From a virus: DNA of 64,000 nt. The stretch is from UHGV virus genome UHGV-0174779, one strand, 5' to 3'. The notes under the pieces were generated by a model, which worked only from the letters and a program-made list of their open reading frames with translations, made no database searches and was not told the origin of the DNA. Below, in pieces: positions 20,591 through 38,132 of the stretch; the stretch's first letter is position 1, and the number at the start of each line of letters is the position of its first letter. The translations under genes were made by a program, and so were the position numbers.

Positions 20591-20696
20591 CGAGAGCTCT
20601 TAGTGAGGGTGTATCTTCCCCGCCTTCTAAGCGGTCGTTAAAGAAGTAAATGGAGTATGCAGGTTCGAGTCCTGTCACCCTCGCTAAGAGCTCTTG
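20591..20696 (+). other. Long inverted repeat forming a 21-bp stem that encloses a tRNA-like T-arm (candidate RNase III site or structured RNA)
   Basis: cgagagctcttagtgagggtg (20591-20611) pairs with caccctcgctaagagctcttg (20676-20696) with two G-U pairs; enclosed GGTTCGAGTCC matches the tRNA T-loop consensus. Confidence 0.4.
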
Positions 20697-33882: not shown

Positions 33883-35428
33883 ATGTCAAAGATCATTTTG
33901 GGAGACACAGGCTGTAAGGAATGTATCTCTCATGGTCGTGATAAAACCCACAACCACATGATTCTCTTCCGTAACGAAGAGACCGGTGAGGAGTGGGGAA
34001 GTTGTAACCGTTGTGGGAATTACGAAGTGTTCGAAAAGGGCACTACACCTACTCCAAACGAGAAGAAAGAGTTATCCCCTGAAGAGTTGAGAGAAGTCTT
34101 AGATGATTGCTTAGAGCTTCCTCAGGGTGAACTTACTCGACGTTTAATCCCTAAAGCCGTATCAGAGCGTTTTGAGTGTCGCATTGGCCTCAGCCAAACT
34201 GATGGTCAGACACCAGACAGTTACTTCTTTCCTCGTGAACGTGATGGAAACATCGTTGGTTACGAGGTTAAACTGCTAGATAGTAAGAAGTTTTATTACG
34301 TTGGCAGTGTGAAAGAAGCAGATTTATTTGGTATGGCACAGGCTCAGCGTGGTGATGTGTACAACAAGAAGCTATTCATTTTTGAAGACCCGCTATCTTG
34401 TATGTCTGGTTTCCATGTCCTTACAGCTTTTACAAATGCAACAAACATTAAGCCAGCATGTGTTTCTTTACCGTTCGGTGCAGGTTCAATCTCTTCTGTG
34501 TTGTCTCGTAATCGAGACTTCGTAAATGGTTTTGAGGAGGTTGTGCTCTGCATGGACAACGATGATGCAGGTGAGATAGCTTTAACAAAAGGTCGTTCTT
34601 TATTCCCTCATGTCAAGTTTGCTCGTATTCCTAAAGGAACTTTCCCATACAACGGTGTGGAGAAAGAGATTAAGGATGCGAATGACATGCTTCTGTCTGG
34701 TCGTGGTCAAGAGTTATTCAACATTCTCAAGTATTCAGCAAAGCGGGAATCTCCTGCTGGTGCTGTAACAATCTTTGATTGTCTTGATGATGCTCTGAAG
34801 AAAGCAGAATGGGGTATCCCCTATCCGTGGAAGACTCTGAATGAAATGACCTTCGGTATTCGATGGGGAGAGGTGGTAGCAATTGGTGGTGGAGTAGGGA
34901 GTGGTAAAACACTCATTGCTCACGAGCTGGTTGCTCATCTGTGCTTAGAGCATGGTTTTAATGGAGGTGGCTTCTTCTTGGAAGAGAAGGTAGGCATGTC
35001 TGTTAAGAACATTGCTGGTAAGTCAGCATCTATTCCTTTCCACCGACCAGATGTTGAATATGATGAGGAGGATTTGCGTAATGAAGCACTTCGTTATGCA
35101 GACAAATTCTTCTTGTATGACAACTTCGGACAGAACGAATGGGAAGACATTAAACAGTGTATCCGTTTCTGGGTAGTTGAAAACCAGTGTAAGTTTATCA
35201 TCCTTGATAACATTACCGCTCTGGTATCTCATTTAACACCTTCAGAGATTAACACTGAAATCAGTAAGATTGCTTCCGAGCTTGCTGGTATGTGTAAAGA
35301 ATTAGACTTTACCGCTTTCGTTCTATCTCACCTCAATGCTCCGGCAGGTGGTGCTCCTCACGAAGAAGGTGGACAGGTACGTGAAGTGCAGTTCACTGGT
35401 TCTCGTTCCCTTATGCGTAAACAAACCT
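33883..35428 (+). CDS. DNA primase-helicase (T7 gp4-like), 5' exon or N-terminal part
   Basis: N-terminal zinc ribbon CKEC...CNRC, helicase Walker A GGGVGSGKT, Walker B FIILDNITAL; reading frame breaks after ...EVQFTGSRSLMRKQT within helicase motif H4. Confidence 0.8.
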
Positions 35429-36047
35429 GCGCATGTAAAACCTATTGAACTCAGGGAAAGCTAAGTCGAAAGATATGCCAATCCTGAGCTAAGCTAGACA
35501 GTCTTCCAAGAGCAAGGAGGCTTTATGGAAGAGAAACAAATAGAAGGTGCATCTAATTATTGGGTGCGGCCTGATGGTACGATTTATAATAGTAAAACAG
35601 GCAATGTTATCTTAGGGGCCAGACATGGCAACGGATATTTAACTGTTTACTTAAGAATGGATACGGGACAAAGAAAGAAATTCTACATGCACCGACTAGT
35701 AGCTATTGCCTTTGTTCCTAACCCTCACAATTATCCATTTATTGATCACTTGGACCATACAAGAGATAATAACGTGGCAACTAATTTGGAGTGGGTAACC
35801 AACGCTGAGAATGTTCAGAGAGGTTACAATTTCTTTAATTATAAACGGAAGACTGTTTAGAAAGTGCAGAGACTAGGGTGGTCATAAGACCGAAGTACAG
35901 CCAAGTGGTGTCATTAACATTGACTTAAATGGAAGCAGTAGGCACACTTTTGTGTGGTGAGATAGTCCGATCTTGCAGGAAACTGTAAGCAGCATGTAGT
36001 GGTGCGGGGTATGAGTAGCGATCATATCTGAACTTTTGTGGTGTCAG
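35429..36047 (+). mobile_element. Probable group I intron (or HNH-mediated gene split) interrupting the primase-helicase gene
   Basis: About 620-nt insert between helicase segments; contains a free-standing HNH ORF with its own AAGGAGG RBS. Exon boundaries inferred by alignment logic, uncertain by a few nt. Confidence 0.55.
35525..35860 (+). CDS. HNH homing endonuclease (intron-encoded)
   Basis: 111 aa; HRLVAIAFVPNPHNYPFIDHLDHTRDNNVATNLEWVTNAEN HNH-type motif. Confidence 0.7.
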   Translation: MEEKQIEGASNYWVRPDGTIYNSKTGNVILGARHGNGYLTVYLRMDTGQRKKFYMHRLVAIAFVPNPHNYPFIDHLDHTRDNNVATNLEWVTNAENVQRGYNFFNYKRKTV

Positions 36048-36293
36048 TGTATCATTGGCTTTGAGCGTGACAAGCAAGCTGATGGCTTAGCTAAGAACCT
36101 CTCAGTCATTCGATTACTGAAAGAACGTAACTACGGTCAGACAGGTGTCTGTTATACTAAGTATATCAGTGAGACCGGCAGACTTGTAGAAAGGGAAGAC
36201 TTTGAAGTTGACGAAGATAATCCATTCGTTTTAACTAACGGAGAGGATGCAGCTTCTCTCGTCAGTCAAGCAGATGGAGCTTCACCGTGGTAA
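36048..36293 (+). CDS. DNA primase-helicase, 3' exon or C-terminal part
   Basis: Translation [33 protein letters not shown] continues helicase motif H4 and C-terminal acidic tail in T7 gp4 order. Confidence 0.7.
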
Positions 36294-36844
36294 AGAAAAA
36301 GAAGAAAGTGTTTGCATTCGATATCGAGAGTAATGCACTATACGATGATATAACCAAAGTGTGGTGTATTTATATTTTCGATGTTGAAACTGATGAAAGG
36401 TGGGGCTATCGGCCTCACCAAATTGAAGATGGGATTCGTAAGCTTACAGAAGCTGATGTGATCTTAGGTCATAACATTATTGACTTCGACCTTTGTGCTC
36501 TGAAGAAAATGTATCCCAATCTGATCGACTATCGTTTTAACGTCTTCGACACTTTATGTCTTAGTCGATATCTTAAACCTGACCGTATTGGTGACAGTCC
36601 TGAGTATCCGAAAGGCGACCCTAGACATGGCCCAAGAGGTCATGGCTTGAAGCAATGGGGTGAGTTCTTAGGGGAACTTAAAGGTGATTACGGTGAGCAA
36701 GAGGAAGCATGGGATGCTTTCACTGAGGATATGTTTACTTATTGTGAACAGGACGTTAACTTAACTGTTAAGGTTTATAAATACTTGTGTGAACTCACAG
36801 GATTTGACCCTTACGACCCACCTTCATTATATTGGAAAATGTAA
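36287..36844 (+). CDS. DNA polymerase, 3'-5' exonuclease subunit (T7 gp5 N-terminal domain as a separate gene)
   Basis: FDIESNAL (Exo I), [13 protein letters not shown] (Exo II), FTYCEQDV (Exo III); ORF stops where the T7 polymerase domain would begin. Alternative GTG start at 36308. Confidence 0.8.
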
Positions 36845-36845
36845 A

Positions 36846-38132
36846 ATGATTGTTATCCCGATTAACCGAATTGCAGATAAGGTTGCTCAACAACCTGATA
36901 TCACTGTTGGTCGTCACTTCATTGAACAGTTGATTAACAACAACTTGATTCCAGACTGTATTTGTCCCATCATCACTGGTGGGGCTGTTCGTGATGCTGT
37001 TCTTAATAACAGAGCACCTCATGACATTGATATCTTTATTGTCAGAGGACAGGCCCCAAGAACTCGAAATACCTTTATCCACCATGACCAGTGGCAAGAT
37101 CTCGGACGAGAGGTTGAAAGTAATGTGAAGGAATGGCTAGAATCACAAGATATTGAATATGCATCCCTTCTTGCTGAATCTACAGATGAGCCGTATACTG
37201 GGACTTCTCAACTAACATTCACTGATATTATTGAGTTTCAGTGGAATGGGGTTCGTATCCAATTCATGTTTAATTATCCTACTTCTATTGAAGAGGTATT
37301 GGATAATTTTCCTATGATGTGCCGTGGTGCGATGACTCTTGACAAGCTGTTCATGACCCCCCAGGGATATTTGGCTATGACCTCTCCTTGTCCAGTGGTT
37401 GTCTCTAGTCGTGAAATCAAGTATGTTCACAAGAAGTGGCCTAATTCACAGGTATTAAGATTCTCCGATCCATCTGTTGCATATCAATATATGGCACAAA
37501 CTCGATACCTTCCTACACCTCAACCAGTTAGTCATCTGGTCAACGAACGAGGTCAGGTTGCTCTTATTGAGGATACAACAAGTGCTCATTATTGTGTTAA
37601 TCGTGACATGAGTCGATTCTTTGGGATCCCTTATGAAGAGATTCAGTTAATGTCAAGCATTCATAGCTCTAGCCAGATTCATGCGTATTGGTCTGAAGGG
37701 TTGACAAATTTAACAACTAACACGGGTGGTGATCTGCTTGGTCGAGAAGAAGACTCTAACCGACACAATGCAATTGAAGGGGTTTTTGTATCCCCTACAA
37801 TGCGTCGAGCACAAGAGTCACGAAGAGTAAGCCCTACTCGTAGAATATCTTTTGAAGATCTTGGTATTACAAGCGATTCTATGGAGCAATGGATGGCTAG
37901 ACCTTCTCGTGGTCGATCAAATGGCTTTACTGTCGGCGCACGTCAGTTCTCTGGTCAGGGTTTTGCTGTTGGTGATATCAACGCACCTGTTAGGGCTGTG
38001 TGGACTGATGAAGATATGGTAGAGAGTCGCGCTGATCAATTTGTTTCAAATAATCCTGAAGTATTAGAACCTCAAACCCGTACAGTTCGGTTTGCCGATG
38101 AATCGGGTCGCGGTTTCTCTTTTGAAATGTGA
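36846..38132 (+). CDS. Nucleotidyltransferase of the CCA-adding / poly(A)-polymerase head type
   Basis: ORF 36789..38132; ATG 36846 directly after the exonuclease gene stop. Motif ITGGAVRDAVLNNRAPHDIDIFIV matches the GGxVRD...DxD signature of class-II tRNA nucleotidyltransferases; C-terminal 300 aa unrecognised. Confidence 0.55.
   Translation: MIVIPINRIADKVAQQPDITVGRHFIEQLINNNLIPDCICPIITGGAVRDAVLNNRAPHDIDIFIVRGQAPRTRNTFIHHDQWQDLGREVESNVKEWLESQDIEYASLLAESTDEPYTGTSQLTFTDIIEFQWNGVRIQFMFNYPTSIEEVLDNFPMMCRGAMTLDKLFMTPQGYLAMTSPCPVVVSSREIKYVHKKWPNSQVLRFSDPSVAYQYMAQTRYLPTPQPVSHLVNERGQVALIEDTTSAHYCVNRDMSRFFGIPYEEIQLMSSIHSSSQIHAYWSEGLTNLTTNTGGDLLGREEDSNRHNAIEGVFVSPTMRRAQESRRVSPTRRISFEDLGITSDSMEQWMARPSRGRSNGFTVGARQFSGQGFAVGDINAPVRAVWTDEDMVESRADQFVSNNPEVLEPQTRTVRFADESGRGFSFEM

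Follow-up and report, generated by a model that had tools for sequence, protein, structure and literature searches.

A probable mobile group I intron with an HNH endonuclease gene interrupts helicase motif 4 of a Kuravirus primase/helicase gene

The primase/helicase gene of virus genome UHGV-0174779, of which a stretch of 64,000 nucleotides (nt) was analysed and is called the window here, is interrupted at positions 35419-36038 by what is very probably a mobile group I intron of the IA type, inserted in helicase motif 4. The source phage is a Kuravirus-type coliphage of the Gordonclarkvirinae, with relatives that include SU10, ES17 and O18-011 (megablast of 33883-36300). The analysis yielded exact boundaries for the insert, a complete and maintained ribozyme fold, a restored open reading frame (ORF) and an endonuclease gene under selection. 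A sequence-only reading of the same DNA had described an HNH-carrying, intron-like element that splits motif H4 and whose removal restores the gene. The 620-nt insert, its group I fold and covariation, the I-HmuI-like HNH protein and the agreement of the restored protein with that of ES17 at 595 of 596 residues bear this out. The observation is partly confirmed and its interpretation as an intron is supported, apart from the exact junction and some supposed repeats. All features described below are on the + strand.

A T7 gp4-like ORF of 521 amino acids (aa) occupies 33883-35448 and has DnaB_C and Toprim_2 matches in Pfam. It ends ...FTGSRSLMRKQTCACKTY-stop at 35448, the abnormal ending to which the sequence-only reading had drawn attention; that reading also had the C-terminus resume in a separate ORF, which is listed as 85 aa and opens at a TTG at 36036. 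The uninterrupted ES17 gene (1791 nt) served as the reference for the boundaries. The nucleotide match to ES17 runs to ...CTTATGCGT (35418) and resumes at TGGTGTCAGTG (36039). Relative to the ES17 gene the insert is 35419-36038, exactly 620 nt, where the gap had been put at roughly that length. It starts AAACAAACCU... and ends ...GAACUUUUG. In the same alignment the base before the insert is U and the final base of the insert is G36038, which is the pattern that the group I rule expects at the ends of exon and intron. Exon 1 of the T7 gp4-type primase/helicase is 33883-35418 (512 codons; Pfam, the ES17 alignment and the T7 gp4 structures, E 1.5e-32), with the final codons ...CUU AUG CGU (Arg512) and U as its last base. 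Exon 2 is 36039-36293 (84 codons and a stop) and starts UGG UGU CAG UGU (WCQC...). The junction in the ES17 protein reads ...SLMR|WCQCIIGF..., and the protein read after in silico removal of the insert has 596 aa, 595 of which match those of the ES17 primase/helicase.

The join of RKQT to CIIGF that had been proposed does not agree with this. The true boundaries are 35418|35419 and 36038|36039, and the proposed junction lies 9 nt (3 codons) downstream of them at both ends; the spacing had looked exact because an equal 9-nt shift at both ends leaves the length unchanged. The short sequence cctg / cagtg, said to be shared by the two junctions, is absent from the real ones, and there is no direct repeat there. 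The placement of the interruption inside motif H4 was correct. In phmmer alignments to T7 gp4 structures (5IKN and 6N7I; E about 1e-32) the break falls where T7 has R493 followed by Q494, inside the LRGSGALRQLSDTIIALER segment of helicase motif 4, the paired segments being FTGSRSLMR| in the window and LRGSGALR|QLSDTIIALER in T7. We take this to be the motif 4 region to which the classical T7 mutants R487, G488 and S496 map.

Translation that continues past exon 1 meets an in-frame UGA at 35446-35448, ten codons into the intron, which overlaps the 5' strand of paired region P3. No Shine-Dalgarno motif was found for exon 2, whose sole start candidate is the TTG at 36036. A functional helicase would therefore need splicing, because the unspliced reading stops after ten codons and exon 2 has only the TTG and no Shine-Dalgarno motif. 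The other way to read three adjacent ORFs is as a gene split without RNA splicing, where a free-standing HNH gene has invaded and two separately made polypeptides assemble into the helicase; nrdA of Aeh1, reportedly split by mobE, is the comparison. Gene callers do annotate three separate ORFs, of 521, 111 and 85-89 aa, and splicing of the insert is a deduction. Such a split gene nevertheless seems improbable, given the lack of a good start for exon 2 just described. The break lies in the middle of motif 4, exon 1 would end in a 9-residue non-homologous tail, the exon junction is exact to the nucleotide, and the 284 bases outside the endonuclease ORF form a complete group I core with compensatory changes.

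The reading frames also bear on a further candidate, an intein or a 'fractured gene' whose split intein encloses an endonuclease. Inteins are classically found in replicative helicases. Fractured genes are known in which a homing endonuclease gene separates the two halves of a split intein (PMC2677866). The insert, however, is out of frame and runs into a stop after ten codons. The exon ORFs exceed the homology to ES17 by only 9 and 1 residues and hold no intein-like protein sequence, Pfam finds no further domain in them, and structured RNA flanks the HNH gene. The intein was rejected on the reading frames, and we give it a negligible probability.

The intron reading is carried above all by the RNA fold. 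Rfam model RF00028 matches the insert end to end (model positions 1-253) with 32.2 bits and E 3e-6 on a 901-nt region. In the alignment the HNH ORF appears as an extra 343 nt in P6, and further inserted bases separate P7 from the P3 3' strand. Searched over the whole window with E-value thresholds, the same model gives two partial matches (E 0.0024 and 0.037). Because the RF00028 score is sub-threshold, an explicit structure was built by hand. All 79 of its pairs are canonical in the window sequence. A search of this gap for group I elements P1-P9 had been suggested; P1 and P3-P9 could be placed, and P2 was not found. The core helices P3-P8 are all present, with the P3/P7 pseudoknot and the P4-P6 domain, and the order of the helices agrees with the RF00028 consensus.

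P1 (35413-35434) pairs exon AUGCGU (35413-18) with the internal guide GCGCAU (35429-34), and U35418.G35429 is the wobble pair at the 5' splice site. The guide half of P10, ACC at 35425-35427, pairs with GGU at 36040-36042 in exon 2; its three pairs are canonical and invariant in seven copies of the intron. The 5' half of the core (35441-35489) is placed by the Rfam alignment and the pair list, with compensatory variants of P3, P5 and P5a in related introns. It comprises the 5' strand of P3 (CCUAUUG, 35441-47, pairing with CAGUAGG, 35936-42), P4 (UCAGGG, 35451-56, with UCCUGA, 35482-87), P5/P5a (35460-78, with a GAAA loop) and the 5' strand of P6 (35488-89, with 35864-65; Rfam alignment and pair list). 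P6a is a 12-base-pair (bp) stem (35494-35505 with 35849-35860) whose loop contains the endonuclease gene, and the stop codon of that gene (35858-60) sits in the P6a 3' strand. The 3' half of the core (35864-35968) comprises the P6 3' strand, P7, P7.1, P7.2, the P3 3' strand, P8 and J8/7. P7 is formed by G35869, bulged A35870 and GACUA (35871-75) with UAGUCC (35963-68), and crosses P3 as a pseudoknot. G35869-C35968, bulged A35870 and G35871-C35967 have the features, at the level of sequence, of the guanosine-binding site. P7.1 (35880-91) and P7.2 (35910-24) are signatures of subgroup IA, and P8 (35943-56) is supported by the Rfam alignment and the pair list. P9 (35972-89, with a GAAA loop), P9.1 (35992-36005) and P9.2 (36007-29) come from RNAfold of this segment. 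They are followed by the tail GAACUUUUG with the terminal G at 36038 (omega-G), which is fixed independently by the ES17 alignment. The position of P7.1 and P7.2 between P7 and the P3 3' strand assigns the predicted fold to the subgroup IA type; because it has no P2, the assignment stops there and does not extend to IA1, IA2 or IA3.

Comparison with other copies shows that these helices are maintained. Loci retrieved for comparison carry L numbers. Eleven are close copies of the window's intron, seven of them distinct. In the seven distinct copies 99.8% of the alignment cells are paired, vs 26-42% in controls with slid partners. Double compensatory changes occur at three pairs: U-A to G-C in P7.1, and U-A to C-G and G-C to A-U in P9.2. 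Changes on one side that keep the pair are found in P9.2 (two), P9.1 (one) and P6a (one). The P6a change, A-U to G.U, is present in three of the eleven close copies (L006, L008 and L012; one distinct alignment row). Variation in P8 is restricted to the loop.

A covariance model made from the close copies detects related introns in split genes of other phages and finds nothing in intron-less loci. The related introns are in Kuravirus O18-011 (L002, 3291-4140, between the primase/helicase gene and a shortened DNA polymerase exonuclease ORF); Kuravirus VTCCBPA_211 (L003, 2751-3485, primase/helicase); Vequintavirus SophiaRose (split DNA polymerase); Aeromonas phage 4L372D (split DNA polymerase); Vibrio phage 1.187.O (L017, 325-1742, split terminase, three hits); and phage C72C1 (split major head protein). 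Proteus phage YP1 and Pseudoalteromonas phage H101 also have covariance-model matches. Compensatory replacements in the distant introns affect P1, P3, P5, P5a, P7.1, P7.2, P8, P9, P9.1 and P9.2. In their alignment 92.9% of the cells are paired and both sides have changed in 55 of 70 pairs, counts that are somewhat inflated because the alignment was fitted to the model; none of 500 shuffles reaches the observed level, and slid partners are 31-42% paired.

The introns of O18-011, VTCCBPA_211, SophiaRose, 4L372D, 1.187.O and C72C1 have core sequence blocks and the same helices in common with the window's intron. They too split essential genes, and several have an HNH ORF. They differ from it in insertion site, host gene, peripheral elements and ORF, some being ORF-less. 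No GenBank phage record has the intron of the window, and only short core blocks match other introns there. GenBank annotates such inserts in related phages merely as separate coding sequences. The terminase of Vibrio phage 1.187.O, for example, is annotated as three 'terminase-like' fragments, and the hits suggest up to three ORF-less group I introns in this gene.

The HNH homing-endonuclease gene (35525-35860, 111 aa) is preceded by the Shine-Dalgarno sequence AAGGAGG (35514-35520), which ends 4 nt before its ATG, so that the earlier description of an HNH gene with its own strong ribosome-binding site holds. The product matches HNH_3 of Pfam (PF13392; 34.2 bits vs a cut-off of 24.8; E 2e-8). 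Among characterised proteins its closest homologue is I-HmuI, the intron nickase of SPO1 (PDB 1U3E), which it matches over residues 1-99 of 174 with E 1e-12, and the motif DH..(R/K)DNN..TNL.WVT is kept in the alignment. Many database relatives of the protein are 109-125 aa long, with NUMOD4 and HNH_3 domains, and the 111-aa protein therefore appears to be a recurrent short form of I-HmuI-like enzyme and not an obvious truncation.

The ratio of non-synonymous to synonymous substitution rates (dN/dS) is about 0.02 against an HNH allele of 97% identity, with 32-37 synonymous and 4 non-synonymous differences. It is about 0.06 against the 66%-identical HNH of a divergent intron (L024), with dS saturated. 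Both alleles were chosen by protein similarity, which biases dN somewhat downward. A calculation from loci retrieved by exact protein identity was dropped as biased, and the 97% and 66% alleles were used instead. Strong purifying selection of this kind indicates that the HNH gene is kept functional.

Several points weigh against an active, mobile intron, besides the inflated pair counts of the distant alignment. The RF00028 score of 32.2 bits falls short of the gathering score that Rfam sets (50), and a whole-window scan at default settings missed the intron; the gathering score is a database cut-off and not a biological criterion, and the model penalises the 343-nt ORF and the P7.1/P7.2 insertions. 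P10 has just 3 bp, weak evidence if taken alone, and P2 is absent from the fold. The 111-aa HNH protein lacks an equivalent of the final ~75 residues of I-HmuI, presumably the DNA-binding domain of that enzyme, which leaves its recognition of a target to be explained. Splicing, homing and the activity of the endonuclease are all inferred. The sub-threshold score, the missing P2, the short P10 and the short endonuclease would also suit an intron that is decayed, is defective in splicing or needs a protein cofactor (a maturase or host factor). We think this has a low probability. The core helices and boundary nucleotides are all intact, and the ribozyme parts are only ~1% diverged while the synonymous sites of the ORF are heavily diverged. 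The ORF is under strong purifying selection, and the element occurs in many near-complete genomes of ~75 kilobases (kb), which implies viable phages with an essential helicase gene.

The site is occupied in some phages and empty in others. Megablast of 33883-36300 matched 99 phage records, mostly at 95-99% identity. A typical relative aligns as two pieces over 1798 bp vs 2418 bp in the window, that is, without the ~620 nt. Coverage of the query stays under 80% in every one of these 99 GenBank records of related phages, and the motif 4 site is empty in all of them. An occupied site is common in Kuravirus contigs derived from metagenomes and the Sequence Read Archive (SRA). The exact HNH protein is recorded in 53 blocks of an assembly collection, from which 24 contigs were read. 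All 24, independently assembled and many of them phage genomes of ~75 kb, have the layout 521 aa, 111 aa and 85-89 aa, and one of them (L009) equals the window across the entire element. Scans for the junctions in IMG/VR gave one occupied and three empty Kuravirus contigs, too few to estimate a frequency. An assembly or sequencing artefact, or a chimera, could be proposed for the abnormal ORF structure and for nothing more. Recurrence of the same architecture in the 24 independent contigs, from 53 blocks and many samples, and in IMG/VR led us to exclude it as a candidate; its probability is very small.

A related intron is present at the identical codon boundary in a contig of 30.8 kb from Logan (SRR25394057; L024, 3890-4499). 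Its helicase exon 1 protein is 58% identical to that of the window. The P1 guide sequence, and P1 as a whole, are the same, and P1 shows compensatory variation in the related introns. Its HNH protein has 124 aa, with the 66% identity to the window's given above. The contig ends inside the intron, before the 3' splice site.

Other intron-type inserts are found in Kuravirus primase/helicase genes after residue 311, at residue ~340 (inside Walker A, GVGS|GKT) and after residue 416. Loci that match group I models at sites other than that of the window are L008 (1511-2235), L026 (about 82-867), L003 (2751-3485) and, outside the helicase gene, L002 (3291-4140). Each of the further Kuravirus inserts has an HNH ORF or an otherwise unannotated ORF, and some contigs have two introns in the helicase gene. 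On these comparisons the genus Kuravirus is an intron hotspot. Insertion in the most conserved segments of an essential gene, combined with presence/absence polymorphism, is what homing introns classically show.

Alleles of the intron are mosaic. L025 is ~14% diverged from the window in the ORF interior (intron nt 130-403), its 5' 129 nt are identical, and its 3' ribozyme part has 3 differences. L004-L013 show the reverse pattern, with a near-identical ORF and 11-14 differences in the 3' ribozyme part. These patterns point to exchange between intron alleles by recombination, or to an ORF module that moves on its own. One could go further and see a modular mosaic in which ORF and ribozyme move independently, the helicase gene being a hotspot (at least four sites) of competing 111-aa nickases that lack a DNA-binding domain of their own and possibly mediate exclusion between co-infecting phages. 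We regard this wider scheme as speculative and rather unlikely.

By established group I chemistry, the intron would fold in the pre-mRNA, a guanosine bound in P7 would attack the phosphate after U35418, and the 3'-OH of exon 1 would then attack after G36038. The exons would be ligated to ...AUGCGU-UGGUGU..., with the predicted junction ...CUUAUGCGU|UGGUGUCAGUGU. The HNH protein, translated separately from its gene in the P6a loop, would nick intron-less helicase alleles near the insertion site in a mixed infection, and recombinational repair would copy the intron into the nicked allele, resulting in homing. I-HmuI, I-HmuII, I-BasI, I-TwoI and I-PfoP3I nick a specific strand near the insertion site (PMC3428280), and it is by analogy with these enzymes that nicking and homing are proposed for the window's HNH protein.

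Literature searches found no report of introns in Kuravirus/phiEco32-like phages or in primase/helicase genes. What is new here is the host gene and site, motif 4 of a gp4-type primase/helicase, and the phage group; the mechanism would be that of known HNH-carrying phage group I introns. The introns of T4 td, nrdB and nrdD (sunY), of group IA2, and those of Staphylococcus phage Twort are self-splicing and have P7.1/P7.2. Their ORFs are looped from peripheral helices, they lie in conserved regions of genes of nucleotide metabolism and replication, and the T4 endonucleases are mostly GIY-YIG enzymes. As described, these introns are like that of the window in P7.1/P7.2 and in the location of the ORF in a peripheral helix, and differ from it in host gene; the window's intron also lacks P2. 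The Twort intron of I-TwoI is in the nrdE gene (PMC3428280).

The intron of I-PfoP3I is similar in that it is an IA-type group I intron with an HNH endonuclease in a replication gene of a podophage, and a close relative of its host, Pf-WMP4, has no intron, which matches the occupied/empty polymorphism of the window's site (PMC3428280). The I-PfoP3I host gene is a DNA polymerase and not a primase/helicase, the HNH motif of I-PfoP3I is C-terminal whereas that of the window has the N-terminal arrangement of I-HmuI, and splicing and nicking have been demonstrated experimentally for I-PfoP3I and are predicted for the window's intron (PMC3428280). Introns of the I-HmuI type sit at a single conserved site even in phages that have diverged widely; the window's phage and L024 likewise have their site in common. 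The I-HmuI-type introns are found in the polymerase gene of Bacillus myophages and not, as here, in the primase/helicase gene of a Kuravirus, and I-HmuI has 174 aa vs 111.

The finding affects how Kuravirus genomes are annotated. A truncated 'primase/helicase', an orphan HNH gene and a small 'hypothetical protein' would together be one essential 596-aa gene and a mobile intron; several Kuravirus genomes have been studied as those of therapeutic coliphages. The T7 gp4-type primase/helicase, at motif 4, would join the phage genes targeted by group I introns. No new mechanism is revealed. Since its sites are occupied in some phages and empty in others, one gene has at least four of them and recombinant alleles exist, Kuravirus would offer a natural system for the study of homing, of intron/endonuclease modularity and of phage competition.

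A scan for promoters and terminators around the element gave counts at chance level and no evidence for an internal promoter. Elsewhere in the window, positions 20605-20683 (+) have a marginal Rfam match to transfer RNA (tRNA; 30.2 bits vs a gathering score of 29), the only match in the default scan; 20 extra nt follow its anticodon arm, and the D-arm is nearly missing. The match is doubtful, since ARAGORN detects no tRNA in any part of the window; it may be spurious, or may reflect a tRNA-like element that is degenerate or unusual. Downstream of exon 2, the 3'-5' exonuclease domain of a DNA polymerase is a separate ORF of 185 aa (36287-36844, +) that overlaps the helicase stop codon. The next ORF in the region 36287-38132, of 447 aa, has a weak nucleotidyltransferase match (PolyA_pol head) and no polymerase domain. 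The layout of ES17 is similar, with a separate 558-nt 'DNA polymerase' ORF followed by a hypothetical protein, and in O18-011 the ORF at the position equivalent to the 447-aa ORF is annotated with a CCA-adding nucleotidyltransferase domain. The separate exonuclease ORF therefore looks like a feature of the genus and not like another interruption.

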